This document shows positions 10,380-23,996 of a stretch of 64,000 nt of DNA, piece by piece. The stretch spans positions 167,657 to 231,656 of the forward strand of contig CAWAGH010000007.1 in assembly GCA_963781465.1 (NCBI GenBank), written 5' to 3'. Within the stretch, counting starts at the first letter, position 1. The number at the start of each line of letters is the position of its first letter. The position numbers and the translations under genes were made by a program. This DNA comes from an uncultured Actinomycetota bacterium. Its GTDB lineage: Bacteria; Actinomycetota; Actinomycetes; Actinomycetales; Dermatophilaceae. The notes under the pieces are model-generated. The model did no database searches. It was given only the letters and a program-made list of their open reading frames with translations, and had not been told where the DNA came from.

Positions 10380-11717
10380 TCAGCGGGTGGCGCCGGTGAC
10401 GAGCCAGCCGTCGGCCCGGAACCGCCACCAGAGGCCGATCCCGCGCAGCGCCATGAACCCGCCGCCGAACCAGACCCACAGCCCGGCGAGCGCCTGCCCG
10501 AAGCCGCCCGGTAGGAGCGCGCCGCCCGCACTGGCCCACAGCGTCAGCGGCACCCAGACCACTCCCGCGCCCACCATCGCCACGGCCAGCCAGACGGTGT
10601 CGCCGGCCCCCATGAGGACCCCGTCCACGACGAACACGAACCCGGCCAGCCATTGAACCAGCGCCACCACGAGGAACGCCCACCCGGCCGCCGAGACGAC
10701 CGCCGGGTCCGGGCTGAACAGCCGCCCGATGAACGGGGCGAGGGGGATGAGGACCAGGCCGGTCACGACCCCCGCGCCGACGCCCCACCGCGCCATGGTC
10801 CGCGCGGCGGCGCGCGCCTGCTCGACGTCGCCGGCGCCGAGGGCCTTGCCGGTGATCGCCTGGGCCGCGATGGCCAGCGCGTCCAACGCGAACGCCAGCC
10901 CGTTCCACACGGTCGCCACGATCTGGTGGGCGGCGAGCACCGTATCGCCGTACCGCGCCGCCACCACGGTCGTCGCGACGATGACGCCGCGCAGCGCGAG
11001 GGTCCGAACCAACAGCGGGACGCCACCCCGCGCGGCGTGGAGGATCCCCGCGGTATGCGGCGACAGCGGCGCCCCGAGCCGGATCGCCTTGCGGAGCACG
11101 GTGACCACCAGCGCCACGGCCATCCCGGTCTGCGCGAGGACGGTGCCGATGGCCGACCCGGCGATGCCCAGGTTCAGGCCGTAGACCAGCGCGAGGTTGA
11201 GGACGATGTTGGCGCCGAACCCGGCCACCGCCACGACGAGCGGCGTCCGGGTGTCCTGGAGCCCACGCAGCAAGCCGGTCGCGCCGAGGACCACGAGCAT
11301 GCCCGGTATGCCGATGGCCGAGATCCGCAGGTAGATGGTGGCCTGCTCCTGGACGGCGGGAGAGCCGCCGATCGCCGCGCACAGCCAGGGCGCCGCGATG
11401 CCCATCCCCACGGCGGTGAGGGCGCCGAGCCCTACCGACAGCCAGAGACCGTCGACGCCGGCCGCGATCGCCCCGGTCTCGTCACCGGCACCGAGCCGTC
11501 GGGCGACCACGCTCGTCGTGCCGTACGCGAGGAAGACGAACACGCCGGCCGCCGTCAGCAGGATCGTGGACGCGACCCCGAGACCGGCGAGCGGCTCCGT
11601 TCCGAGGTGGCCGACGATCGCCGAGTCGGCGAGCAGGAACAGCGGCTCGGCGACCAGGGCGAGAAACGCGGGGATCGCGAGCCGCAGGATCTCCCGCCTC
11701 ATCGCCGCGCCACTCAC
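10380..11717 (-). CDS. MATE family efflux transporter (DinF-like)
   Basis: 445-aa polytopic ORF. N-terminus ILRLAIPAFLALVAEPLFLLADSAIVGHLG is typical of MATE proteins. About 12 hydrophobic segments. Confidence 0.85.
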   Translation of the reverse strand: MSGAAMRREILRLAIPAFLALVAEPLFLLADSAIVGHLGTEPLAGLGVASTILLTAAGVFVFLAYGTTSVVARRLGAGDETGAIAAGVDGLWLSVGLGALTAVGMGIAAPWLCAAIGGSPAVQEQATIYLRISAIGIPGMLVVLGATGLLRGLQDTRTPLVVAVAGFGANIVLNLALVYGLNLGIAGSAIGTVLAQTGMAVALVVTVLRKAIRLGAPLSPHTAGILHAARGGVPLLVRTLALRGVIVATTVVAARYGDTVLAAHQIVATVWNGLAFALDALAIAAQAITGKALGAGDVEQARAAARTMARWGVGAGVVTGLVLIPLAPFIGRLFSPDPAVVSAAGWAFLVVALVQWLAGFVFVVDGVLMGAGDTVWLAVAMVGAGVVWVPLTLWASAGGALLPGGFGQALAGLWVWFGGGFMALRGIGLWWRFRADGWLVTGATR

Positions 11718-11755
11718 AGGAGCCTAGCCACGCACCCCGACCGCCTTGGGACTGC

Positions 11756-13841
11756 TCAGGATCCGAGCGTGAGCAGTCCCCAGTACCGCCGGTAGCCGCC
11801 ATCGCTCGCGGTGTGGTCGGCGACGTACCGTTGTTGCTGACCCGCGAGCGGATCCCGGTCTGGCTGCCGGCCGCGGGGTCCACGTCGCTGACGATGAGGT
11901 TCGCGCCGAACTGGGCACCGGCATACATCGTGGTCAGCCCACCGGCTTCGGGGAGCCGGATGACCGACCACGGCACGGCGGCCTCGACGGTGTACCCGTT
12001 CGACGATGTCACCGCCGCCGCCTTGACCGCGGGCGCGCTCCGACCCGCGTCGACGTCGAACGTCCGCCCGGAACCCACGGTGACGGCGGCCACGGCGCCC
12101 CCACCGCTGGGCCCGACGGAGAGCGAGACGTCGCCGGGGCTGAGGTTGCTGCCGTCGGCGTTGGCCCCTGAGGAGCCGAACTGGAGGGTCACCGCGTCGC
12201 CCTGGAACAGCCTGGCCGGGTTCGCCGCGTTGGTCGTCGTCAGCTCGGGGTCGAGGACCTGGGCCAGCAGGTCGAGGCTCTCGTCGTCCCAGCCGAGCGA
12301 CCAGAGGCCCTTGAGGGTGACACTGCCAGTGCCGACCGAGTCGTCGCCGCGACCATCGACTGCTCGGGGCGGTACTCAGCCGCCGCGGGGAGAATTGGGG
12401 GCCCTCCACCGGGCGGTAGGTCACGGTGGCCGTCGCCACCACGGGCGGTGCGACGCCGCCCGGTGAGGTGGTGGGCGGCGAGGAGGTCGCTGCGGGCGTA
12501 GAAGCGGCGGCCGGCCCCGCCTCGGGCGACCCGCTCGAACCGGCGCGGGTCACCGCGAACACGACGACCGCGACGAGCACGGCGGCGACAGCCGCGGCGA
12601 TCCCGATGAGGCGTCCGCGACCCGGCCGACCGGCCGGTGTTGGCGACGGGGTGGCAGGAGGGGCGGGCGGCGTAGACGGAGCCGGTGCGGGCCTAACCGG
12701 AGCCGGTATGCCGGTCGCCGCCGGGGTCCGCGGAGCCACCCCTCGAACACCTGGCCGTCGGGCGCGTTGAGGTAGAGCACCGGCGTGGCCCACTCGCTGG
12801 CGTACCCGGCCAGCAGGCCCTTGCGTGCGCTCGTGACGGCCTGGTCGACCGGCATACCGTCGGCGAGCGCCGCGTAGAACTCACCGGTGAACGCGGTGGC
12901 GGCGCCGTCGCTGATAGGGAACTGCATCGCGACGACCGCCGTGCAGTCCTGCTGGACGAGACGCTGGGCCATGCCGCTGAACGGGTCTGCGGCTCCGACG
13001 CCGGCCGGACTGGCACGCGGTGAGGAACACCAGCCGCAGCGGGTCGTGGTCGTGGAGGTACGGGCCGAGGACCGCGGGTGGGACGGCGACGCTGCGGCCG
13101 TCCTGGTCGCAGAAGTAGAGGACGCTCTCCTGCTGGCCCTCGTCGAAGTCGCCGTGCCCGATGACGTGCAGGACGTGCACCTCGTGCGAGCGCAGCCACG
13201 CCGCGAGGTCGGTCGTCGTGGGTGACGGCAGCCGGTCCAGCTGGACCGCGCCGGACGACACGCGGGTGGCGAGCATGTCCTGCATCCGCCGCCACTCGGC
13301 CTCGACGTCGAGCTCCGGCAGGTCGGTCGGTGACGAGAGGACGACGAGGATCCGCAGCGGCCCCTCGACGGTCAGCGGGCGCGGCGGGTGCGGTACCTCG
13401 AGGTAGCGGACGAGCGGAGTGCGTTCGGACTGCGCCGGGTACGAGTTCGTACGCCGGTCGACGAGCAGCTCCCACGGCAGTCCGGCGATCTCCGGAGCGT
13501 CGGTGAGCTGCAGCCGCAGCCGCAGCCCTTCACCTGTTTCACGCGTGGCGTCCTGGCTGCGGGTCCAGGCGAGGAGGACCTCCTCGCCGAACACCGCCTC
13601 GAACAGCGCGCCACCGAGCTCGGTCGACGCCTTGAACGCGGATCGGCGGTCGCGCGGCGCATCTGGGAGCGGCCCGGGTCGAGCTTCAGGAGCAGGTCTC
13701 CAGCTCGGTCGCGTCGAACGGCATCGCGAACGTCGCGGTCGCGCCGGCACCGACCGGGCTCGCCGCGACGCGGGAGCGGAAGGTGCCGTCGCCCGCGGAC
13801 TCGACCAGCAGGTCGAAGTTCTCGTATGCGCGCGCGCTCAT
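11756..13841 (-). pseudogene. decayed paralog A of the CHAT - TM - CBM9-like membrane protein family
   Basis: ATG 13841 (GAGGA upstream) opens MSARAYENFDLLVESAGDGTF..., which stops after 51 codons. Homology to the intact neighbour then continues through frames mod3 = 2,0,1,0,1,2,0,1. It passes LLLKLDPGRS, LPWELL, HVLHVIGHGDF, LVFLTACQSG, MAQRLVQQDCTAVVAMQFPISD, the TM helix IGIAAAVAAVLVAVVVFAV, WSLGWDDESL, YTVEAAVPWSV and the ending WGLLTLGS*. This implies at least seven frameshifts. Confidence 0.85.
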
Positions 13842-13867
13842 CCTGGGTCCTCACCGCTCGCGATCGG

Positions 13868-15880
13868 TCACGGCACCAGGGTCAGCGTGCTCCAGTGGTC
13901 CCGCCAGGAGCCAAGGCTGCCTGACAACGTGGCCGCTGGGTTGTTGGACACGACATCCAGTAGGCCGGCGCCGGCCTTGTCGCCAGCTTGTCGTGCGTAG
14001 AGGTTCATGCCCATCTGGGTGTAGTCGGCCGCGGCTGAACGGGACAGGGCAGACCAGGGAATGCGACCCTCGATGGTGTAACCAGACCCCGTCCCGGTAC
14101 CGAAAACGTTGACGCCGACGATGGATAGCGCCGTCCCGAACGCCGATCCGGCCGGGTTGGCTCCGAGGATCTGGGTCACCGACTGGTTCGTCTTCTGGAG
14201 CGGGGTCGCGATGAGCATGACGTCCTCCGGCTCCAGACTGAGGTTGTCGTGCGAAGGCGTGGCGGTACCGAGGTCGAAGCTCACTCCCGTGTTCGCGAGA
14301 ATGCGGTTGGCGTCGGCCTGGTCCGGCCCCAGCTGGGACCCCGAGACCGTGACGAAGAAGTACAGCGCGTTGTCGTCCCATCCGAGCTCCCAGGTGGAGG
14401 ACGTCGTCGCGGCCGCTCCCAGGACCAGCTTGTCGGTGGTCACGGTGGGTATGCGCGGCCAGTCGTCGTCGCGGCCGTCGATGGTCGGCGGTGTCGAAAG
14501 ATGGGCCGCGGTGATGGCCGGTCCCTTGAGCGTCGTGCCCGACCCCGGCGGAGGATCGGGGGTGAACGACTTCCAGATCGCGAAGACGAACCACCCGACG
14601 GACGCCGCGATCATGAGACCGATGAGGGCCCACGTGAGTTTGCCCCTCTGTCGAGGCGGCGATGGTGTACGCGCTGGGGGCCGGGTAGGTCCGGGCTGGG
14701 ACAGTCCGGGCTGGGGTGGTCGGGGCTGGGGCGGTCGGCCTGGGTCGGGCGGTGCCGTCCGGGGTCCATCCAGCACCGGCAGCTCGAACAGGACACCGTC
14801 GTCGGATCGCAGGTAGAGCACCGGGGTGGCCCACTCGCGGGGAAAGTCCATGAGCAGGCTCTTACGCGCCCCGGCCATGGCCTGGTCGACGGGGTACCCC
14901 CTGGCGATGGCCCGGTAGAGCGCGCGGCTGAACGTGCTGGCGGCGCGGTCGCTGACCGGGAACTGCATCGCCGCGACCGCACTGACGCTGTTCCGCACCA
15001 GGCCCTGGGCCATGCCACCGAAGACGTCGTGCGCGTCGCCTCGTGCCGAGTGACAGGCGTTGAGGACCACCAGCTTCAGGTCATGGACGTCCTGCAGGAC
15101 GGACCCGAGCCGGTCGGCACCGATGGGGTTCTTGGTGGAGTAGTTCGTGCAGAAGTAGACGACCCCCTCCTGGGTCGACTCGGCGAAGTCGCCGTGTCCG
15201 ACGAAGTGGACGATGTGGACTGGTGAGTCACTGAGCCGCTCGAGGAGCCGACCCGGGGTAGCGGGCTGTGGGAGTCGCTCGAGCCGGACGAGGCCGCGCG
15301 CGACGAGCGGGGCGAGCTCCTCGTTGACGGCGCGCCACTCGTTCTCGAGATCGAGCTCCGGGAGGTCGGTGGGCGAGGCGAGCACGAAGAGAATGGTGAG
15401 CGGACCGTCGACCCGGAGCGCGCCCGAACCCCGATCGCCGAGGAAGCGGATGACCGGCGTCGCCTCTGACTGCGCGGGGTACTGGTTGAGTCGCGCGTTG
15501 TACAGCAGTTCCCAGGGCAGTCCGGCCAAGACTGGGGCATCCGTCAGCTTCAGCCGAAGGCGAAGACCGTGCTCCCGAGCCCGGACGTGTTCCTGGGAAC
15601 GGATCCAGGCCTCGTGGACGTCCCCGCTGAACGCCGCCGAGTAGAGCGCCGCACCGAGCTCACGAGAGGCCGTCTCTCGTGGATCGCCGGAGCCCCCGCG
15701 CATGTCGCTTCGTCCCGGGTCGAGCTTGAGGAGCAGGTTCTCCAGCCTGGTCTCGTCCAGAGGGAAGGTGAAGCGGGCCGCGGGGGTCTCGTTGGAGGGA
15801 CAGGCCGTGACGCGGGCCTGGTAGCCGCCGTGCTCCTCCTCGATGAGGAGGTCGAAGTTCTCGTACTGTCGAGAGGCCAC
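13868..15880 (-). CDS. CHAT-domain (caspase-like) protease fused to one TM helix and an extracytoplasmic CBM9/DOMON-like domain (paralog B, intact)
   Basis: GTG 15880 lies 11 nt after the upstream stop. N-terminus VASRQYENFDLLIE...LENLLLKLDPGRS. CHAT core with LAGLPWELL, catalytic His HIVHFVGHGDF and Cys LVVLNACHSA. A Pro-rich linker, RQRGK + WALIGLMIAASVGWFVFAIW (positive-inside rule puts CHAT in the cytoplasm). The C-terminal domain PTIDGRDDDWP...WELGWDDNALYFFV...GVSFDLG...GYTIEGRIPWSAL...GMNLY matches the carbohydrate-binding family 9-like pattern. Confidence 0.85.
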   Translation of the reverse strand: MASRQYENFDLLIEEEHGGYQARVTACPSNETPAARFTFPLDETRLENLLLKLDPGRSDMRGGSGDPRETASRELGAALYSAAFSGDVHEAWIRSQEHVRAREHGLRLRLKLTDAPVLAGLPWELLYNARLNQYPAQSEATPVIRFLGDRGSGALRVDGPLTILFVLASPTDLPELDLENEWRAVNEELAPLVARGLVRLERLPQPATPGRLLERLSDSPVHIVHFVGHGDFAESTQEGVVYFCTNYSTKNPIGADRLGSVLQDVHDLKLVVLNACHSARGDAHDVFGGMAQGLVRNSVSAVAAMQFPVSDRAASTFSRALYRAIARGYPVDQAMAGARKSLLMDFPREWATPVLYLRSDDGVLFELPVLDGPRTAPPDPGRPPQPRPPQPGLSQPGPTRPPARTPSPPRQRGKLTWALIGLMIAASVGWFVFAIWKSFTPDPPPGSGTTLKGPAITAAHLSTPPTIDGRDDDWPRIPTVTTDKLVLGAAATTSSTWELGWDDNALYFFVTVSGSQLGPDQADANRILANTGVSFDLGTATPSHDNLSLEPEDVMLIATPLQKTNQSVTQILGANPAGSAFGTALSIVGVNVFGTGTGSGYTIEGRIPWSALSRSAAADYTQMGMNLYARQAGDKAGAGLLDVVSNNPAATLSGSLGSWRDHWSTLTLVP

Positions 15881-15891
15881 GGTGCCTCGCC

Positions 15892-16779
15892 TCAGCCCTC
15901 GAGATGGAGCGTGCCCCAGATGCTGCGGAACGGGGCGTCGTTGCCCTTCCGTGCGGGGTTGTTGCTCACGAACGAGCTGAGCTCGCCCGCCTTGGAACCG
16001 GTCGCGACGGAGTCGCTGACGTTGAGGTTCATGCCGTACTCGTTGCCGCCGGAGATGTTCTCGGCGCCGAGGGTCGACCACGGGATGGCCGCCTCGAGGA
16101 GGTAGCCGTCGTCGGTCTTCGCGGTCGCCGCGCGCAAGCCCTGGATGGTGTTCGGGCCGCGGGTGAAGACCGAGCCGTTCGGCACGTTGATCGCGCTGAT
16201 CACCTTGTCGTCGTTGAAGTTCGCCGGTCCGAGCAGGACGTGCTTGTCGCCGGTCTCGAGCGAGGCGTTCGCGTTCTTCGGCAGCGCGGTCCCGAACTCG
16301 AAGCTCACCCCGTCGCCCTTGAACAGCTGGGACGTGTCCGCAGCGTGAGTCTGCAGTTCGGTCCGGTCGAGGACGTGCACGATGGCGTACAGGTTCGAGT
16401 CGTCCCAGGCCAGCGCCCAACGGCCGAGCAGACCGGTGTCGCTTCCCGCGATGAGCACGTTGCTGTCGAAGGTCGGGATGTCGCTCGGCCAGTCGGACGC
16501 GTCCCCGTTGATGGTCAGGCCGGTCGACAGGTGGACCGCTGAGATCTTCGGTCCGGTCAGGGTGCTCGCCTCTCCGCCGTTGTTGCGCGTCGGGTCGACC
16601 TTCTCCGGCAGCTGCGTGCCGTACCAGTAGAGGCCGCCGAACACGACGGCCACGACCGCCAGGACGATGGTGATGATGAGGCCCCACCGAGGCTTCTTCG
16701 GGTTCGGCGGGTTCACGTACCGCAGCGGCGCCTGGCCGGGACCACTCTGCCGCGGAGGCTGCTGCTGCTGGGTCGGCAC
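15892..16779 (-). CDS. TM + CBM9/DOMON-like domain protein; C-terminal half of paralog C/D, detached by a frameshift
   Basis: GTG-initiated ORF (V)PTQQQQPPRQ...KKPRWGLIITIVLAVVAVVFGGLYWY, then TINGDASDWP...WALAWDDSNLYAIV...GVSFEFG...GYLLEAAIPWSTL...GMNLNV...IWGTLHLEG*. Collinear with the C-terminal half of paralog B. Its frame stays open upstream into the P/Q repeat of the preceding ORF. Confidence 0.7.
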   Translation of the reverse strand: MPTQQQQPPRQSGPGQAPLRYVNPPNPKKPRWGLIITIVLAVVAVVFGGLYWYGTQLPEKVDPTRNNGGEASTLTGPKISAVHLSTGLTINGDASDWPSDIPTFDSNVLIAGSDTGLLGRWALAWDDSNLYAIVHVLDRTELQTHAADTSQLFKGDGVSFEFGTALPKNANASLETGDKHVLLGPANFNDDKVISAINVPNGSVFTRGPNTIQGLRAATAKTDDGYLLEAAIPWSTLGAENISGGNEYGMNLNVSDSVATGSKAGELSSFVSNNPARKGNDAPFRSIWGTLHLEG

Positions 16780-18458
16780 CGGTTGCGTCGGCTGCTGCGG
16801 CTGGTACGTGGGCTGCTGTGCTGGTAGGTGGGCTGCTGCGGCTGCTGGTAGGTGGGCTGCTGTTGCTGGTAGCTCGGCTGCGGCTGGTAGGTCGGCTGCG
16901 GCTGCGGCTGCTGATAGGAGGTCGGCTGCGGCCGCGGCTGCTGATAGGTCGGCTGGTATGCGGGGGCGCTGGTCGGAGGGGGCGTCGCCGTCGTCGTCGG
17001 CATGGCCTGGGTCACCGGCGGGGCGGTCGTGGCGCTCGTCGCCGCCACGCCGGCTGTGGTCGCGGCGGCCGCCGCAGCGGCCCCGCGGAGCGGGACGGGT
17101 TCCGGGGTGGGCTCTTCCGCTCTCGCAGCGGCCGGCTCAGGCTCGGGTGTGGGAACGACGGGCTTGAGCTCCTCGGGCTGCACGCCGACTGGCTTCAGGG
17201 CCGGCGGCTCGAGCAGGGCCTCCTCCGCGGACTTGCGTTTCGTCTCCGTCGTCTCCGCGTCGGTGGCCAGCGCCTCCTGGGCGCGCTCCTCGTCCTCGGC
17301 TTCGACCTCGGGCGCCGGCGTGGGAACGGCGGTCACCGCGGGCTGGGCCACGATGTGGTCGAACACGCGGCCGTCCGGAGCGCGAAGGAACAGCACCGGG
17401 GTGGCCCACTCCGCTGCATACTCCGCGATGAGCGCCTTGCGTGCGCTGGTGGCCGCCTGGTCGACAGGGAAGCCGTCGGCGAGCGCACCGTAGAACTCAC
17501 CGGTGAACGCGGTCGCCGCGCCGTCGGAGATGGGGAACTGCATGGCGACGACCGCGGTGCAGTCCTGCTGGACGAGGCCCTGTGCCATCCCGCTGAACGG
17601 GTCGGTGCTGTCGACGCGCGCCGACTGGCAGGCGTTGAGCAGGACCAGCCGCAGCGGGTCGTGGTCGCGGAGGTAGGGACCGAGGACCGTCGGGCTGACC
17701 TTGGTACTACGTCCGTAGCGGTCTTGGAAGTAGACGACGCCGTCCTGGATCCGGTCGTCGTAGTCGCCGTGTCCGATGAAGTGCAGGATGTGAACGTCGT
17801 TCTGCCGCAACCACGCCGACAGCGCCTGGATCGTCGGTGCCGGCAGCCGGTCGATCTTCACCGTGCCCTGGGCGACCTTCGCGGCGAGCGCATCCTCTAC
17901 GCGTCGCCACTCGGCCTCGACGTCCAGCTCCGGCAGGTCGGTGGGCGAGGAGATGACGACGAGGATGCGCAGCGCACCGTCGACCATCAGCGGCCGCGGC
18001 GGCTGGGGCACCTCGAGGTAGCGGACCACCGGAGTGCGTTCGGACTGCGCGATGAAGCTGTTGCCGCGCCGGTCGTAGAGCAGCTCCCACGGCAGGCCGG
18101 CGATCGACGGCGCGTCGGTGAGTCGCAGCCGCAGTCGCAGGCCGTCGCCGTGGTCGCGGGCGTAGTCCTGGGACCGCTGCCAGGTCAGCATGATGTCCTC
18201 GGAGAAGACGCTCTCGAAGAGCGGACCGCCGAGGTCCATCGACGCCTGGCTCTGTGGGTCGGAACCGGCCCGCCGGGTGCCACTGCGCCCCGGGTCGAGC
18301 TTGAGCAGCAGGTTCTCCAGCTGGGTGGCGTCGAACGGCAGCGTGAACTTGCCGCTAGGGCACTCTCCGAGTGGGCTCGTCGTCACCCGAGCGCGAAACG
18401 AATCGCCCTCCGCCGCTTCGAGAAGGAGGTCGAAGTTCTGATAGGTCCTGGAGGCCAT
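16713..18458 (-). CDS. CHAT-domain protease; N-terminal part of paralog C/D, truncated by a frameshift in its P/Q-rich linker
   Basis: ATG 18458 (AAAGGG upstream). MASRTYQNFDLLLEAAEG...LENLLLKLDPGRS, IAGLPWELL, His HILHFIGHGDY, Cys LVLLNACQSA, GMAQGLVQQDCTAVVAMQFPISD. An E/P/A-rich then PTYQQ-repeat linker runs out of frame near 16819-16820 into an Arg/Ser-rich tail, with a stop at 16713. Confidence 0.75.
   Translation of the reverse strand: MASRTYQNFDLLLEAAEGDSFRARVTTSPLGECPSGKFTLPFDATQLENLLLKLDPGRSGTRRAGSDPQSQASMDLGGPLFESVFSEDIMLTWQRSQDYARDHGDGLRLRLRLTDAPSIAGLPWELLYDRRGNSFIAQSERTPVVRYLEVPQPPRPLMVDGALRILVVISSPTDLPELDVEAEWRRVEDALAAKVAQGTVKIDRLPAPTIQALSAWLRQNDVHILHFIGHGDYDDRIQDGVVYFQDRYGRSTKVSPTVLGPYLRDHDPLRLVLLNACQSARVDSTDPFSGMAQGLVQQDCTAVVAMQFPISDGAATAFTGEFYGALADGFPVDQAATSARKALIAEYAAEWATPVLFLRAPDGRVFDHIVAQPAVTAVPTPAPEVEAEDEERAQEALATDAETTETKRKSAEEALLEPPALKPVGVQPEELKPVVPTPEPEPAAARAEEPTPEPVPLRGAAAAAAATTAGVAATSATTAPPVTQAMPTTTATPPPTSAPAYQPTYQQPRPQPTSYQQPQPQPTYQPQPSYQQQQPTYQQPQQPTYQHSSPRTSRSSRRNRCRPSSSSLRGRVVPARRRCGT
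16760..16960 (-). repeat. degenerate tandem P/T/Y/Q-coding repeat (CAGCAGCCSACSTACCAG-like units)
   Basis: The minus strand encodes AYQPTYQQPRPQPTSYQQPQPQPTYQPQPSYQQQQPTYQQPQQPTYQ, then after a 1-nt loss QQPTYQPQQPTQPVPTQQQQPP. The plus strand shows the repeated GGCTGCTG / CTGGTAGGT pattern. Confidence 0.8.
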
Positions 18459-18635
18459 CGCCGGCCCTTTCGCACGGTTCCGTCTACCTGAAATGGTGGA
18501 GCCGCGAGCTGACGCGATGATACCGCTGTAACCGCATCGGTATGTGGGCATTCGTTCCGTGGTCCGCCGCCCAGAACCCTTCCGCCGCGTCCGTCGCATA
18601 CCGGACGATGACTACATCGAGGATGCCCGGACGAC

Positions 18636-21155
18636 ATGCGGGGTATCTGCCCCTCGCTCGACGACTCCGTGAGGATCGTGGGACCCATGCCAGGAGTGGA
18701 CGCGTGGTGCGCGTTGGCCGACCAGGTCGTCGCCGCCAACGACCCCGCGATCGCGGACCGCGCGAAGACCGTGCTGGTCAGCCTCGGCGTGACCGACGAC
18801 GAGCGCGCCGAGCTCGCGGCGACGATCCGCGGGCGGGAGGACCCGGCCGGCCTGCTGCTCGCGCACGTGGTGGGGAACGCGCATGCCGACCTGTCCGACG
18901 ACGCACCGGTGACCAGCTCCGCGACGCCGGACCAGATGGACGCCGCCCTGGCGCTCTCGGGTCAGCTGCTCGCGGGTCCGGCCGCCACCATGGCGGCTCG
19001 CCTGGGTGCCGCCGCCCGAGACGTCCTGGCCCACCTGCCGGCCGATGCCGCCGGCTCGCTCGTCTCCGGCCTCGTCACCGCCTCGCTGTCGATGACCGAC
19101 CCGGCGATGCGGACCGCAGCCCTGACCACGGTCGTCGACGCCACCAGCGACGTGACGATGGGCCGGCTCCCGGTGGCGACCGTGGTGACCGAAGTGGTGC
19201 GTGCGGCCCCGCCCGACGCGGACCGCGAGCTGGTGGCGAAGCTGCTGGCCCGCACGTCGTCGTCGCGGCTGCTCTCGGGCGTGCTCGACTCCCTGCGTGA
19301 CGGCACCGAACCCCGGGCGGTCCTGGAGCTCCTCGAGCGGGTGGCCCTGCTGCGCGACACACAGGCACCACCGCCACCGACGGCGGCCGCCGACCGCGAG
19401 ATCGACCTCGGCGCAACGCCGGAGCCGTCCGACGTCACCTTCCGCGGCCCGGGCGGCGGCCACGCGGAGATCGCGCCCAGGCCGCCGCCGAAGCCCGCCG
19501 AACCCGCGCAGGAGCAAGCGCCCGGCGGAGTCCTGCGGTCCGCATACCCGCGCATCGACGTCGACGCCCATCGCGAGGTCCGCCCTGAGGTCGTCGTCCT
19601 CGACGAACCGTTCGACGTGGTCGTGGGGCTGGCCAAGTTCCAGGACGCGACGATCACCCAGACCGGTGCCATGCGGTTCATGGCCGGCGCAACGACCGAG
19701 CTCGAGCTGGTCCTCGTCTACGACCCGAACTCCCTGAAGGCGCAAGGCGATACGCGGCTGACCGTCAACGTCAGCGACGCCGACCCGTACCCCACGGCCA
19801 CGGTTTCGTTCGTCGCGACGTACCGGCCCGACCTGCCCAGCGAGCGGCGGATCGGCGTTCACTACATCGTCGGCGGCCAGGTGGTGGGCATCGCCTGGCG
19901 CAGCCTGATCGCCGTCCCCTACGCCAAGGACGTCGCGAACGCCCCCACGCCCCAAGCCGGTCCGGACGCACTGATGGAGCTCGAACCCCTGCTGGGCGTG
20001 GACCAACCCGAGCTCATCCTGTCGATCTGCGCCTCGGACGGTGCCGCCACGGGAGAGTTCATCTGGACGGCGTATGCGGCGGCCTCCGACGTGACGGTGC
20101 CGGACGCCCCGCGGTCCTCGAGGCTCGACTCCGACCTCCAGGGCTTCGTCACCGACATGCGGCAGACCGTCTCCCGCGCGCAGGGTCCGTACGAGGAGTA
20201 CCTGTCGCTGGCCGGAGCGGCCATCCGCATGGGGCGGGCGGTTCCGGACGGGATCCAAGGCGTGCTGCGGAAGGTCGTGGAGGACCCGGCGCGCACCACG
20301 GCGCCGACGATCCTGCTCCTGACCGAGGAGGTGACGCTGCCCTGGGAGCTCGCCGTCTTCGACCCACCGCTCGACAGCGCGTGGGGCGGGATCTCGCCCT
20401 TCCTCGGCTCCCACGCGGCGATCGCGCGATGGCCGCTCAGCGAGAAGCGTCCACGGCCGACACCGAGGTCGGCGGTCGCCGTGAAGCGGGCGGCGGTCCT
20501 CACGGCCGACTACACGGGCGTCATGGGGTGGGGTGAGCTGAAGGAGGCCCAGGAGGAGGCCGACTACGTCACCACGTTGTTCACCTCGACGTTCCCGGTG
20601 ATCCCCTCGATCGACGACGTCATCGACCTGCTCAGCGGGAACCCGTCCGCGGACGTCCTGCACGTTGCCCTGCACGGGCAGTTCGACGCACGAGGGGACG
20701 AGGGCGGCCTGGTCCTGCTCGCCAAGGACGCGGCCGGGAACCTCACGACGACCGCCCAGTTCCTCAAGCCGGACCAGGTCCTCAACGGGCGCCTCGACAA
20801 CGGTCCGTTCGTCTTCCTCAACGCCTGCCAGGTGGGTTCCGACAAGCGGGTGCTCGCCGACAACGGCGGGTTCGCCTCGACGTTGCTGCAGATCGGGGCC
20901 ACCGGGGTCGTGGCTCCACTGTGGAACGTCAACGACGTGACCGCCGCCGAGTGCGCCCGCGCCTTCTACGCCGCGACGTGGAGCGCGACCGGCGAGGGCG
21001 ACGCGTCGACCCGGGTGTCGGCGGCGGAGGCGGTTCGGTCGCTGCGGGCGAAGTACACCCAGTCGGCCGCACAGACCGCGACTCCCGGGATCGACGCGAC
21101 GCTGATCGCCTTCCAGGTGTTCGGCCACCCTCGGCTGCGCCTCGACCGAGGCTGA
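18636..21155 (+). CDS. large soluble CHAT-domain protein with uncharacterised N-terminal regions
   Basis: 839-aa ORF; ATG 18636, with an alternative ATG at 18687. About 240 aa of Ala/Leu-rich helical region, a Pro-rich linker, a beta-rich segment (PFDVVVGLAKF...ELELVLVYDP...TATVSFVATYRP). C-terminal CHAT domain with TLPWELAVF, His VLHVALHGQF and Cys FVFLNACQVG. No TM segment, TPR repeat or NTPase motif noticed. Confidence 0.8.
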   Translation: MRGICPSLDDSVRIVGPMPGVDAWCALADQVVAANDPAIADRAKTVLVSLGVTDDERAELAATIRGREDPAGLLLAHVVGNAHADLSDDAPVTSSATPDQMDAALALSGQLLAGPAATMAARLGAAARDVLAHLPADAAGSLVSGLVTASLSMTDPAMRTAALTTVVDATSDVTMGRLPVATVVTEVVRAAPPDADRELVAKLLARTSSSRLLSGVLDSLRDGTEPRAVLELLERVALLRDTQAPPPPTAAADREIDLGATPEPSDVTFRGPGGGHAEIAPRPPPKPAEPAQEQAPGGVLRSAYPRIDVDAHREVRPEVVVLDEPFDVVVGLAKFQDATITQTGAMRFMAGATTELELVLVYDPNSLKAQGDTRLTVNVSDADPYPTATVSFVATYRPDLPSERRIGVHYIVGGQVVGIAWRSLIAVPYAKDVANAPTPQAGPDALMELEPLLGVDQPELILSICASDGAATGEFIWTAYAAASDVTVPDAPRSSRLDSDLQGFVTDMRQTVSRAQGPYEEYLSLAGAAIRMGRAVPDGIQGVLRKVVEDPARTTAPTILLLTEEVTLPWELAVFDPPLDSAWGGISPFLGSHAAIARWPLSEKRPRPTPRSAVAVKRAAVLTADYTGVMGWGELKEAQEEADYVTTLFTSTFPVIPSIDDVIDLLSGNPSADVLHVALHGQFDARGDEGGLVLLAKDAAGNLTTTAQFLKPDQVLNGRLDNGPFVFLNACQVGSDKRVLADNGGFASTLLQIGATGVVAPLWNVNDVTAAECARAFYAATWSATGEGDASTRVSAAEAVRSLRAKYTQSAAQTATPGIDATLIAFQVFGHPRLRLDRG

Positions 21156-21176
21156 CCACACTCACGAAGGAGCGCG

Positions 21177-22664
21177 ATGGCTGAGAACCTGCGGCCCGAA
21201 GGAATCCCCGTCACCGTCGGGACCGTTCGGATCTCCACGCCCGGGCTGACCGGTCGCGTCGAGGTGTACCAACCGGGGACCGCCGGGATGCGCGGCGCGG
21301 AGAGCTCGACCGAAGCGTTCCGCCGGGCCCTCGACCAGGGCGGCGTGGTGGAACAGCTCACCGTCGAGATCACCGGCCAGCGCGAGCTGGACAACGCCGG
21401 TGGGAGCCGCGGCGGTGGGGGCGGTAGCGAGATCGTGGTCGAGGTCCCGCCCCCGGGCACCGGCAACGGCCAGCTGCTCCTGTATGCGGCCGAGGACGGT
21501 TCGCTCTCGTGGCACCTTCCGGACGACGTGCCACCGGAGCAGGTGGTCAGCCGCGGCGGAGACCGGCGCACGTACCGGCTGCCGCGGGAGGTGGTCCTGG
21601 CTGACCCGGCCTCAGCCGGTGGGCAGCGCGGCATCCTCGGGGCGGTCGGGTCGAAGCTGTTCAAGATCCTCGTGTTCCCGCTCATCGACCCGATCCTCGG
21701 CAAGGTCGGCGACTACTTCGCCGCTCGGTGGGAGCAGAAGAACCGGCGCAACCTCGTGCGGTGGTTCGACCCGGGCGACTACCAGCGCTCCGACGTCGTA
21801 GCCTTCGCGGCGCCGGACTGGACGCGGGTGAGCGGCGGCACGGCGCTCCTGTTCATCCACGGCACGACCGCGCAGTCCAACACGGCGTTCGACCAGCTCC
21901 CGGCCGAGACCCTGACCGAGCTTGGACGTCGTTACGGCGGAAGGGTGTTCGCGCTCGACCACTTCACCATCTCGGTGACGCCGCACGACAACGTGACGTG
22001 GCTGGCCGAGCAGCTCGCGGCGCTCGGAGGCGGTTCTCCGCTCACGCTCGACCTCGTCAGCCACTCGCGCGGCGGCCTCGTCGGTCGCGTCCTCGCCGAA
22101 CGAGCCGCCGACGTCGGGCTGGCCGGCAAGGTCACGGTGCGCAACTTCGTCATGGTCGCCTCGCCCAACGCCGGAACGGCGCTCGCCGACAAGGCGCACC
22201 TGTCGCAGCTGATGGACCGCGTCACCGACCTCGCCCAGTTCATCCCCGACGCCGGCGTGACCGACGTCGTCGGGCTGGTGCTGTCGATCCTCAAGCAGCT
22301 CACCGTCGGCGCGTACGGCGGCCTCGAGGGCGTCATGGCGATGGACCCGCAGGGCGAGTACCTCAAGGCGTTCAACAGCACACCGGGCTCGACGGCGACC
22401 TACCGGGCGATCGGGTCGAACTACCAGCCGGCGCGCGGCGCGTCACTGGCCCGCATCGCCCGGAACGCCGGCACCGACTTCGTGTTCCAGAAGGCGGACA
22501 ACGACCTCGTCGTCCCCACCAACGGGGCATACGAGGTCGACGGTGTGGTGGGGTTCCCGATCGCCGACCCCCTGGTCTTCCCCGCCGAGGCGGGCGTCGA
22601 CCACGCGTCGTACTTCACCCGTCCTGAGGTCTCGGCGAAGCTCCTGGAGTGGCTCCCGGGGTGA
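21177..22664 (+). CDS. alpha/beta-hydrolase fold protein (lipase/esterase-like) with a ~190-aa N-terminal extension of unknown function
   Basis: ATG 21177 preceded by GAAGGAG, 21 nt after the CHAT gene stop. Hydrolase core: LLFIHGT (oxyanion region), nucleophile elbow LVSHSRGGLV, candidate Asp in KADNDLVVP, candidate His in GVDHASYF. The N-terminal part (VTVGTVRISTPGLTGRVEVY...GGGGG...LLLYAAEDGSLSW) matches nothing I recognise. Confidence 0.75.
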   Translation: MAENLRPEGIPVTVGTVRISTPGLTGRVEVYQPGTAGMRGAESSTEAFRRALDQGGVVEQLTVEITGQRELDNAGGSRGGGGGSEIVVEVPPPGTGNGQLLLYAAEDGSLSWHLPDDVPPEQVVSRGGDRRTYRLPREVVLADPASAGGQRGILGAVGSKLFKILVFPLIDPILGKVGDYFAARWEQKNRRNLVRWFDPGDYQRSDVVAFAAPDWTRVSGGTALLFIHGTTAQSNTAFDQLPAETLTELGRRYGGRVFALDHFTISVTPHDNVTWLAEQLAALGGGSPLTLDLVSHSRGGLVGRVLAERAADVGLAGKVTVRNFVMVASPNAGTALADKAHLSQLMDRVTDLAQFIPDAGVTDVVGLVLSILKQLTVGAYGGLEGVMAMDPQGEYLKAFNSTPGSTATYRAIGSNYQPARGASLARIARNAGTDFVFQKADNDLVVPTNGAYEVDGVVGFPIADPLVFPAEAGVDHASYFTRPEVSAKLLEWLPG

Positions 22665-23352
22665 GATGCCGCGTCGCCTCGCGTCTCGACAGGCCGGACA
22701 GCTCTCCGGCGTGGGTGTCGACGAAGGCGCGCACCCAGTCCGGCGCCACGCGGGCGTGATCGCGCAGTGCCCACCCGATCGCCTTGCGGATGAAGAAGTC
22801 CCGGTCGGCGAGGTTCGGCTCGATGGCGTCGGTGAGCAGGTCCTGGTCCAGCCGCTCCTTGCGCCCGACCTGGCCGATGATGGCGGTCCGGCGCAGCCAG
22901 AGGTGCTCGTCGACGGCCCACTCGCGCAGCCGCAGCCCCTCGACGTCAGGTGCGCCCTCGAGCACCTCGCGGACCAGGTGCGTCGCGACCTCGTCGACGA
23001 CGTCCCACCACGCGCCGGTCACGACGAGATGCCGCCAGAGCGGCATGGACTCGCTGTCGAGCCACGAGCGGTAGGCGCGGTACCGCGCGAGGGCGATCGC
23101 CGCATACCACTCCTCGCGGTATGCGACCTCGTCCCACAGGGCGCGGATGGTCGCCTCCCACTCCTCCCGGCCGGCTATCCGGAAGCCGGGGTCGGCGAGG
23201 ATCGGGCGCAGGACCGCGGTGAGCTGTGGCGAGGTGAGCCCGCGGTAGGGGAGCGCGGACTTCATATAGCGCTGCTGGCCCGAGGCCCTCTCAGGGTCGG
23301 CGTGCCGGGCCAGCTCGGCACGGATCGTCTCGACGAGGTCGTGGTGGACCAC
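22615..23352 (-). CDS. DNA alkylation repair enzyme family protein (AlkD-like HEAT-repeat protein)
   Basis: GTG 23352 lies 1 nt after the upstream stop. QQRYMKSALPYRGLTSPQL, WWDVVDEVATHLV, FFIRKAIGWALRDHAR are typical of this family. The 3' end overlaps the convergent hydrolase gene by 50 nt. Confidence 0.75.
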   Translation of the reverse strand: MVHHDLVETIRAELARHADPERASGQQRYMKSALPYRGLTSPQLTAVLRPILADPGFRIAGREEWEATIRALWDEVAYREEWYAAIALARYRAYRSWLDSESMPLWRHLVVTGAWWDVVDEVATHLVREVLEGAPDVEGLRLREWAVDEHLWLRRTAIIGQVGRKERLDQDLLTDAIEPNLADRDFFIRKAIGWALRDHARVAPDWVRAFVDTHAGELSGLSRREATRHLTPGATPGASPRPQDG

Positions 23353-23353
23353 G

Positions 23354-23620
23354 TCAGGCGTAGCGCACCGCTGCCCGAGCGCGGGCCTTCTCGGCCTCGA
23401 TCTCGCGGTTCTTGGGCGGGGCGGTGGTCGACAGGTGGTCGAGCAGGTGCTGCGTGGCGTGCGCGACCTCCTCGACGGCCTCGTCGAACGCGGCCTGGTT
23501 GGCCAACGACGGCTTGGTCGACCCGGAGACCTTGCGGACGTACTGGAGGGCGGCCGAGCGCACCTCGTCGGTCGTCGCCGGGGGCTCGAAGTTGTACAGC
23601 TGACGGATGTTCCGGCACAT
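23354..23620 (-). CDS. DUF2277-family small protein
   Basis: 88-aa ORF MCRNIRQLYNFEPPATTDEVRSAALQYVRKVSGSTKPS, the highly conserved N-terminus of this actinobacterial family. Confidence 0.8.
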   Translation of the reverse strand: MCRNIRQLYNFEPPATTDEVRSAALQYVRKVSGSTKPSLANQAAFDEAVEEVAHATQHLLDHLSTTAPPKNREIEAEKARARAAVRYA

Positions 23621-23641
23621 GCCTCGACTCTAGGCACCGCC

Positions 23642-23935
23642 GGTGGACACGCCGAAACTGGTTCGTGACTTTCTGTTGTCCACAGGTGGTGGACGACGAT
23701 CCGGGCACGTCGCCCCGCACGAGCGGCGCCGAACCTGGGAGAACCATGCACCGGTCCTCCCCAGGTTGTCCCCAGGCTGTTCCGGCGTGGTGCACACCGT
23801 TGTCCACACCTGGTCCACAGGATGGGTTTGTACCTCGACCCCGGCACCCCTAGCGTGACAGCGCGCCAGCGTCGCCCAGCCCGAACCACCCTGATCCGGT
23901 GGCTGTCGGCGGTCGATGGTGCCATGAGTGGACAC
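23642..23935. promoter_or_regulatory. cluster of DnaA-box-like 9-mers in the dnaB upstream region
   Basis: Perfect TTGTCCACA at 23676-23684 and 23800-23808. One-mismatch boxes TTGTCCCCA (23766-23774) and TGGTCCACA (23811-23819). Two-mismatch boxes on the opposite strand around GTGGAC at 23642-23650, 23688-23696 and 23927-23935. Confidence 0.6.
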
Positions 23936-23996
23936 CAGTTCGAACGGCCAGCTCGGAAAGGAACGCGAGGCGCGGTGGCGACCAGGTGACCCTCAC

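Follow-up and report, generated by a model that had tools for sequence, protein, structure and literature searches.

A HetF-type membrane-tethered CHAT protease with a CBM9-fold outer domain and its linkage to a caspase/alpha-beta-hydrolase gene pair in an uncultured actinobacterium

The 64,000-nucleotide stretch of actinobacterial DNA analysed here (the window) carries three tandem paralogous genes on its minus strand, A, B and C, and the middle one, paralog B, encodes a CHAT-domain protease joined by a single predicted transmembrane (TM) helix to a CBM9-like domain. Paralog B is a HetF-type membrane-tethered CHAT protease of a new, uncharacterised variety. The most interesting result is the linkage of this gene array to a caspase/alpha-beta-hydrolase effector pair, namely the divergent genes for a second, soluble CHAT protease (CHAT2) and a DUF7379 protein, and this linkage argues against a strict one-component system. 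The window has a GC content of about 71%, and the closest matches of its proteins come from Intrasporangiaceae (named Lapillicoccus, Knoellia, Oryzobacter and Ornithinibacter).

Paralog B is a single open frame of 670 codons plus stop, starting with a GTG codon at 15880 that is preceded by GAGG, and its GC content at third codon positions (GC3) is 0.85, the same as in the neighbouring genes. An earlier reading made from the sequence alone (the sequence-only reading) had described this paralog as intact, which holds; the reading frame is broken once in paralog A and at least four times in paralog C. A Pfam scan places CHAT (PF12770) at residues 75-354 with 95.3 bits (cut-off 24) and CBM9_1 (PF06452) from residue 467 onwards with 34.3 bits (cut-off 23.4). 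The AlphaFold2 (AF2) model, for which an alignment of 104 sequences served as the input, has a mean predicted local distance difference test (pLDDT) score of 88.7 and consists of a folded CHAT part at residues 1-366, then disorder at 370-415, a helix spanning 415-437 and, from 450 to 670, a beta-sandwich. That the fusion is an artefact of assembly or gene calling was rejected, as about 95 independent clusters from several sources share the architecture.

The catalytic dyad of paralog B lies in the motifs HFVGH229G and LNAC276. In the homologue set used throughout, an alignment of 104 CHAT+CBM9 proteins, His229 does not vary and Cys276 is kept in at least 90% of the sequences. Foldseek comparison of the N-terminal half of the model with the PDB retrieved SAVED-CHAT (8tl0), DdvA (8rot), Csx29 (8eey) and separase (5fc3), all at E ≤3e-10. 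The only NCBIfam match is the HetF model NF045509 (residues 74-364, E 9e-23); with 80.5 bits against the equivalog cut-off of 1200, paralog B falls below it, and the homology is confined to the CHAT region. Judged by these motifs and the predicted structure, paralog B is a CHAT-family cysteine protease with an intact dyad and a caspase-like fold. A separate observation concerns the conserved loop LKLDPGRSxxRR at residues 51-62 (15695-15730, minus strand), which sits between the N-terminal beta-strands and the CHAT core, where the model confidence drops. R61 of this loop is invariant, P55, R57 and R62 occur in at least 90% of homologues, and an Arg-specific protease may process the protein at this loop.

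The sole hydrophobic segment of paralog B is WALIGLMIAASVGWFVFAI (residues 417-435, Kyte-Doolittle hydropathy 2.15). It is immediately preceded by a Pro-rich linker with the basic patch RQRGK and followed by a nearly uncharged stretch, and the first 40 amino acids contain no hydrophobic run (maximal 12-mer hydropathy of -0.02). The succession of Pro-rich linker, RQRGK and single TM helix recognised in the sequence-only reading is confirmed by the sequence, the hydropathy and the AF2 helix, and the tether reaches pLDDT values <50 at residues 394-415. One TM-like segment separates CHAT from CBM9 in 103 of the 104 homologues. Across these 103 proteins the mean net charge of the 15-residue flanks is +3.07 before the TM segment and -0.59 after it, the charge before exceeding the charge after in 96 of them, and a hydrophobic N-terminus was found in only one. 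Relatives of the ectodomain in other proteins stand behind a TM helix that follows Ser/Thr kinase domains, and in short relatives the domain is preceded by signal-anchor-like (signal or lipoprotein-like) N-termini. Because the kinase heads on the same ectodomain need cytoplasmic ATP, the CBM9 domain is expected outside the cell. The predicted topology, with CHAT in the cytoplasm and CBM9 outside the membrane, is well supported, and the earlier statements that paralog B has no signal peptide and keeps its CHAT domain inside fit the charge bias and the lack of a hydrophobic N-terminus. A reverse or same-side arrangement, with CHAT exported or both domains cytoplasmic, has next to no chance of being correct: in its favour it has the fact that topology was judged from hydropathy and charge counts alone, but it would have to accommodate the missing N-terminal hydrophobic segment, the strong and consistent positive-inside bias of the 103 homologues, and the position of homologous ectodomains behind kinase-linked TM helices or signal- and lipoprotein-like N-termini.

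The assignment of the C-terminal domain to the CBM9/DOMON type, proposed from motifs in the sequence-only reading, is borne out by the Pfam match to CBM9_1, by structure comparison and by profile search. Among PDB structures, Foldseek ranks CBM9-2 of Thermotoga maritima Xyn10A first (1i82; target TM-score 0.81, E 8e-12) and a Caldicellulosiruptor CBM9 next, and a profile built from 16 ectodomains aligns with the whole length of 1i82 at E 1e-20. A match to the designed Kelch-like SAKe proteins, which arose in a single-sequence PDB search as a short repeated match of 45 residues, was spurious; the profile search gave 1i82 instead. All quoted C-terminal motifs (TIDGRDDDW, WELGWDDNALYFF, GVSFDLG, GYTIEGRIPW and GMNLY) are found in the translation. 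The domain type stood, and the size of about 270 amino acids did not, since about 235 lie past the membrane and about 220 of these are folded.

The resemblance in fold does not extend to the sugar site. Notenboom and colleagues reportedly identified, in 2001, Trp71, Trp175, Glu77, Gln96 and Gln151 as the sugar-binding residues of TmCBM9-2; we take Trp71 and Trp175 to be the aromatic clamp and the remaining three to be the polar ligands. These positions were mapped by projecting the profile alignment on the ectodomain alignment (chain index equals published number plus 1), an alignment that is uncertain in the loops. The ectodomains linked to kinase, Mrr and STAND heads keep both clamp aromatics, Glu or Asp at 77 and Gln at 96. 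In actinobacterial ectodomains linked to CHAT these positions hold Phe or Tyr (71), Gly (175), Ser or Gly (77), His (96) and Asn (151), so that of the two clamp positions only 71 is aromatic. Paralog B is the most deviant at this site, with Leu at 71, Met at 96 and Tyr at 151; in addition, the near-invariant GD motif of the family reads NT, and NLNVSD is replaced by NLYARQ, yet the fold of the ectodomain is still predicted with confidence. The carbohydrate ligand suggested earlier should not be assumed, given that the CHAT-linked ectodomains, and paralog B more than any other, have different residues at most of the sugar-binding positions of true CBM9; on these alignments classical reducing-end sugar binding is uncertain, which is meant as a caution and not as a disproof.

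How common this architecture is was assessed at several levels. A search with paralog B among 5.8 billion proteins gave 1048 matches at E ≤1e-5, and both PF12770 and PF06452 were present in about 95 of the best 120 clusters (90% identity). The CHAT+CBM9 clusters are mostly from Intrasporangiaceae, and some bear the JGI label 'CHAT domain/Carbohydrate family 9 binding domain-like'. Combinations of this CHAT module with PD40/Tricorn_N propellers and with thioredoxin occur too. In a scan that took one genome for each species, CHAT-module relatives numbered at least 447, spread over Actinomycetota, Chloroflexota, Acidobacteriota, Verrucomicrobiota, Gemmatimonadota and others. A census of open reading frames (ORFs) covered 89 CHAT-module ORFs in the examined loci (80 loci from the species scan plus three found earlier); a hydrophobic segment follows CHAT in 61 of these 89, and 53 have exactly one. 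The C-terminal Pfam domains of the CHAT-module relatives (n=83) comprised TPR (19), CBM9_1 (13), FGE-sulfatase (9), PD40 (4), lectin folds like those of 3-keto-disaccharide hydrolases (3keto-disac_hyd; 4), SIR2_2 (3), TIR_2 (2), TCAD2 (2) and PAP2 (2). Membrane-tethered CHAT proteases whose outer domains are interchangeable form a large family that spans several phyla; paralog B is a member, and its architecture is a variant of a catalogued theme, the CBM9 version of which is undescribed. Our literature searches found no paper that combines 'CHAT domain' with CBM9 and none on transmembrane CHAT-domain caspase-like proteins of Actinobacteria. To call the architecture unusual, as was done at first, was too strong in view of the frequency of CHAT+CBM9 among the best clusters and of HetF, already described with the same plan.

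Shuffling is also seen from the side of the outer domain. A search with the ectodomain alone among 1.84 billion cluster representatives gave 163 matches at E ≤1e-3, and 33 of the 150 listed matches carry the same CHAT module. Other heads found before TM and a CBM9-like domain are Pkinase, Peptidase_C14, Mrr_cat, nSTAND1 and a zinc ribbon; P0136, P0170, P0187, P0190, P0196, P0198, P0215 and P0177 are proteins of this kind, with a non-CHAT head, TM and a CBM9_1-like domain. The CBM9_1-like ectodomain seems to be a general, so far undescribed, outer module of signalling or conflict proteins. Because the same CHAT head carries other outer modules and the same ectodomain sits on other heads, a receptor-like reading of paralog B is favoured: such two-way shuffling of domains would be the signature of a receptor design with the input outside and the output inside, and it is the strongest support for the receptor idea, which in the sequence-only reading was a matter of topology and now gains real support. 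The ectodomain is also more divergent than CHAT in 99% of 5356 pairs, with a mean identity of 0.40 versus 0.62, and paralogs A and B are 52% identical in CHAT and 34% in the ectodomain.

The partner operon lies head to head with the array. DUF7379 and CHAT2 stand divergent from a CHAT-TM-X gene in the window and in 12 related loci (L001-L006, L008-L010, L012, L013 and L085); this cassette is present in every close relative with enough flanking sequence, which extends its conservation over Intrasporangiaceae and Nocardioides, and its intergenic gap is about 55-230 bp in the clade. In Knoellia locipacati and Nocardioides donggukensis the cassette is kept in different gene surroundings, and the receptor gene of the Nocardioides cassette has a PD40/Tricorn_N outer domain. 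Further away, DUF7379 adjoins CHAT-TM-X genes in Micropruina and in a Gemmatimonadales metagenome-assembled genome. Giant ORFs in L038 (Verrucomicrobiae; 12037-15501, minus strand) and L057 (3448-7563, minus strand) combine DUF7362, DUF7379, TCAD7, DUF7363 and CHAT, in other words the hydrolase and the protease fused with a ternary-complex-associated domain, and they too adjoin a CHAT-TM-X gene. In terms of chain composition, paralog B has input-like and output-like domains in one polypeptide, and it has a conserved partner operon, yet partnerless copies exist (L032 and L081). Because the gene is always divergent from CHAT2 and DUF7379 in its own clade, the label 'one-component' given to it in the sequence-only reading is doubtful and, on this gene order, probably wrong.

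As to the pair itself, the best Foldseek matches of CHAT2 are Csx29 and separase, and besides its helical repeats, beta-sandwich and CHAT domain it has a disordered loop. Homologues of the DUF7379 protein are named 'alpha/beta hydrolase' or 'esterase/lipase family protein' in the source databases, and its fold assignment rests on these names together with the HG and SHSRGG motifs. A PDB sequence search matched it to an aminoglycoside kinase by chance, and a literature search found no paper mentioning DUF7379. Scans of 11000-23500 returned no promoter-like site for sigma-70, the divergent intergenic region included, and no more terminator-like sites than in shuffled sequences.

The closest described relative is HetF of Anabaena/Nostoc PCC 7120, which gave CHAT its name and has a cytoplasmic CHAT, one TM helix and periplasmic TPR; it is septal, interacts with FtsI and cleaves PatU3 after Arg117 (PMC8406250, PMC9457339), and its soluble CHAT domain expressed from an inducible promoter restored the mutant (PMC9457339). 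Paralog B shares with it the N-terminal cytoplasmic CHAT, the single TM helix, the extracytoplasmic C-terminal domain and the His/Cys dyad. It differs in the outer domain (a CBM9 fold instead of TPR), in the length of the CHAT module (366 against about 555 amino acids), in its actinobacterial host, in its tandem paralogs and in the linked CHAT2/alpha-beta-hydrolase operon. Sequence comparison thereby marks paralog B as a HetF homologue with the same plan and not as an orthologue.

The gene pair recalls the NTP-dependent conflict systems with MoxR and vWA described by Kaur, Burroughs, Iyer and Aravind (2020; eLife e52696; PMC7159879), in which caspase-superfamily domains always adjoin an alpha/beta-hydrolase gene and for which a joint action of the two was proposed. 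In the loci studied here a caspase-superfamily gene (CHAT2) likewise adjoins an alpha/beta-hydrolase gene (DUF7379), the two being fused with TCAD7 in L038 and L057, but one to three membrane-tethered CHAT-TM-ectodomain genes take the place of MoxR, vWA and VMAP. No MoxR, vWA or VMAP/iSTAND gene was seen in L001, L002, L003 and L085, where Pfam-annotated genes up to 8-10 kb away were considered, or in the scanned neighbourhood of the window, where the ORFs at 22665-23927 were left unscanned; these small ORFs are syntenic to DUF2277 and DNA_alkylation genes.

Three further comparisons are of use. The xylanase CBM9 modules (T. maritima Xyn10A, 1i82; Caldicellulosiruptor, 7nwn) share with paralog B the beta-sandwich (target TM-score 0.76-0.81) and the core motifs IDG..W, W..WD...LY and GY..EA..PW, but they are attached to a glycoside hydrolase, whereas the domain of paralog B is attached to a protease via a membrane helix. 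DdvA of Myxococcus xanthus is a transmembrane anti-sigma factor with periplasmic TPR-CHAT and a cytoplasmic zinc anti-sigma domain (PMC11506125; PDB 8rot). It is likewise single-pass, with a long flexible linker between CHAT and the TM helix, and proteolytic signalling has been proposed for it; its topology, however, is inverted, the N-terminus of paralog B being a cytoplasmic CHAT without an anti-sigma domain. Orthocaspases of cyanobacteria (Peptidase_C14) that carry a TM helix C-terminally, together with FGE-sulfatase, WD40 or other accessory domains, have been catalogued without mechanistic study (PMC8283722; bioRxiv 10.1101/2020.05.26.117283). They resemble paralog B in the caspase-like head, often with one TM helix C-terminal to it, and in a variable ligand-binding domain, and differ in having C14 instead of CHAT, in the phylum, and in the absence of CBM9 from the listed partners.

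Caspase-like proteases are widespread in bacteria, and to our knowledge their switching on is understood for a few cytoplasmic cases (Craspase, SAVED-CHAT and the gasdermin proteases). We know of no studied member of the membrane-tethered CHAT protease family other than HetF, whose substrate is known and for whose outer domain we are aware of no established role. A family that connects CHAT heads across the membrane with exchangeable outer domains would couple the cell surface directly to regulated proteolysis. With its conserved neighbours, the genes for a second CHAT protease and a lipase-like hydrolase, such a gene makes up a concrete three-gene system that can be tested and that is present in actinobacteria amenable to culture, namely Knoellia locipacati, Nocardioides islandensis, N. 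donggukensis and Oryzobacter sp. R7. If such a system operates, a caspase/alpha-beta-hydrolase effector pair can be driven by membrane receptors rather than by the MoxR-vWA machinery.

The reading that we prefer, and to which we give about even chances, is that paralog B is a clustering-activated CHAT receptor that cuts CHAT2 and/or DUF7379, several paralogs acting on one effector pair. The outer domain would bind an envelope or external ligand, probably a glycan, in a way other than by the classical CBM9 clamp. The disordered tether would be unable to relay a conformational change, and activation would therefore proceed by clustering, which would bring the CHAT heads together; proximity activates caspases and SAVED-CHAT filaments. 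The active head would then cleave cytoplasmic targets, CHAT2 and/or the DUF7379 hydrolase being the likeliest, and the paralogous receptors A, B and C may all feed this single effector pair. A number of observations weigh against such a receptor. The canonical CBM9 clamp and polar ligands are, by the profile alignment, mostly replaced in the CHAT-linked ectodomains, and that of paralog B, with its altered sugar residues and no GD motif, may bind something else or nothing. The linkage of receptor and pair, as gene order goes, is clade-specific and not obligatory: CHAT-TM-CBM9 genes without the pair exist in L032 and L081, and a Jiangellaceae contig (L084) has the pair with no CHAT-TM-X gene within 8 kb. 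The locus lies in core-genome synteny conserved across genera (DnaB, MatE, tRNA synthetase), with no obvious defence island, and a PADLOC scan of B, A, CHAT2 and DUF7379 assigned no system, its output being limited to generic similarity of the CHAT core to SAVED_CHAT and BovA. The restoration of the HetF mutant by the soluble CHAT domain (PMC9457339) favours localisation over sensing in that protein. Finally, ligand binding, activation and the substrate of paralog B are points that we infer rather than show. A more elaborate version of the preferred reading, which strikes us as distinctly unlikely in its entirety, is a receptor-initiated caspase cascade, a bacterial parallel to the extrinsic one: an external or cell-wall ligand, for instance a phage receptor-binding protein or wall damage, would cluster A, B and C, whose ectodomains all differ, the heads would trans-activate and cleave CHAT2, and CHAT2 would free the lipase-like DUF7379 hydrolase from its N-terminal domain, leading to membrane damage, abortive infection or cell death.

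The main competitor to a clustering-activated receptor is a localised housekeeping protease of the HetF type, whose CBM9-like domain would be an anchor at wall sites such as the septum or growth zones and which would process a regulator of division or morphogenesis constitutively or at a set time of the cell cycle. HetF, with the same plan, its septal location, its contact with FtsI, its cleavage of PatU3 and a soluble CHAT domain that by itself restored the mutant, is the precedent for such a protease; the HetF model is the best NCBIfam match of paralog B, the core-genome synteny is stable across genera, and a disordered tether suits a passive anchor. We nonetheless regard this explanation as somewhat unlikely, as tandem duplication with copy decay and fast divergence of the ectodomain are unexpected for a housekeeping gene, the HetF score stays at 80 bits where an orthologue would need 1200, and two other traits are of the kind typically seen in conflict or signalling systems, namely a linked caspase/alpha-beta-hydrolase pair and an ectodomain that Mrr, nSTAND1 and caspase heads also carry.

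Two other explanations concern paralog B more narrowly. It might be a decaying or neofunctionalised copy in a birth-and-death array, which without ligand binding would act as a decoy or regulator of A or have no function. The frame change in A, the breakage of C in at least four places and the deviations of B at conserved ectodomain positions (NT for GD, Leu for the aromatic, Met for His, NLYARQ for NLNVSD) would agree with this; its full open frame with gene-like GC3, the intact dyad and most of the near-invariant core residues, the confident ectodomain model and the B-type orthologues found elsewhere (P0002, a P0121 fragment of 88% identity and an intact A-B array in L004) make it quite improbable. 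A very improbable alternative, and the model of the sequence-only reading, is a stand-alone suicide or stress protease that senses envelope damage or phage attachment and degrades many cytoplasmic proteins, CHAT2 and DUF7379 being a separate system. The solitary receptor genes of L032 and L081 and the solitary pair of L084 are what this model would expect, but the head-to-head order with its short gap recurs in every own-clade locus with enough flank, and the cassette moves as a unit into the different surroundings seen in Knoellia and Nocardioides.

Table 1. Positions in the window of paralog B, its parts and the linked genes
Feature	Position	Strand	Remarks
Paralog B: CHAT, tether, TM helix and CBM9-like ectodomain	13868..15880	-	intact, 670 aa; stop codon 13868-13870
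CHAT protease module, predicted cytoplasmic	14783..15880	-	residues 1-366; Pfam, AF2, Foldseek, NCBIfam HetF model
Catalytic His229 codon	15194-15196	-	conservation in homologues
Catalytic Cys276 codon	15053-15055	-	conservation in homologues
Pro-rich disordered tether ending with the basic patch RQRGK	14639..14782	-	residues 367-414; pLDDT, sequence, charge
Single transmembrane helix	14570..14638	-	residues 415-437; hydropathy, AF2 helix
CBM9-fold beta-sandwich, predicted extracytoplasmic	13871..14533	-	residues 450-670; Pfam, Foldseek, ectodomain profile
Paralog A: CHAT, Gln/Pro-repeat linker, TM, CBM9	15892..18458	-	-1 frame change near 16818; stop 11 nt before the start of B
Paralog C: decayed copy	11756..13841	-	CHAT and CBM9 remnants, at least 4 frame changes
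Divergent intergenic region between paralog A and CHAT2, 228 bp	18459..18686	.	probably a shared control region
CHAT2, soluble: helical repeats, beta-sandwich, CHAT domain	18687..21155	+	His and Cys motifs; homologue-consensus start 18687, mechanical ORF start 18636
DUF7379 alpha/beta-hydrolase	21177..22664	+	FIHG and SHSRGG motifs; starts 21 nt past the CHAT2 stop

The frame change of paralog A consists of CAGCA followed directly by CAGCAG where relatives have CAGCAACAGCAG, and it falls inside a repeat tract (16790-16955), an imperfect tandem repeat coding for QQPTYQ units whose copy number varies between genomes. The CHAT part of paralog A is 93% identical to an intact orthologue of 831 amino acids (P0028), and comparable splits at the linker were found in L001 (second paralog), L005 and L078; the frame change may be real or a sequencing error. 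The genes that neighbour the decayed paralog C look intact. Weak tblastn matches of the linker at about 4454, 33436, 36318 and 47236 were rejected as further paralogs, being low-complexity Pro-rich sequence.

Beyond the cassette, the gene at 23928-26444 on the plus strand encodes the replicative helicase DnaB, split by an intein that contains a homing-endonuclease domain of the LAGLIDADG type. Syntenic relatives carry an inserted AbiEi_4 gene between MatE and GT2 (L001, 16078-17049, and L002, 1-290, both plus strand), and a HEPN_AbiV gene lies about 10 kb away, which hints that defence genes accumulate near this locus.

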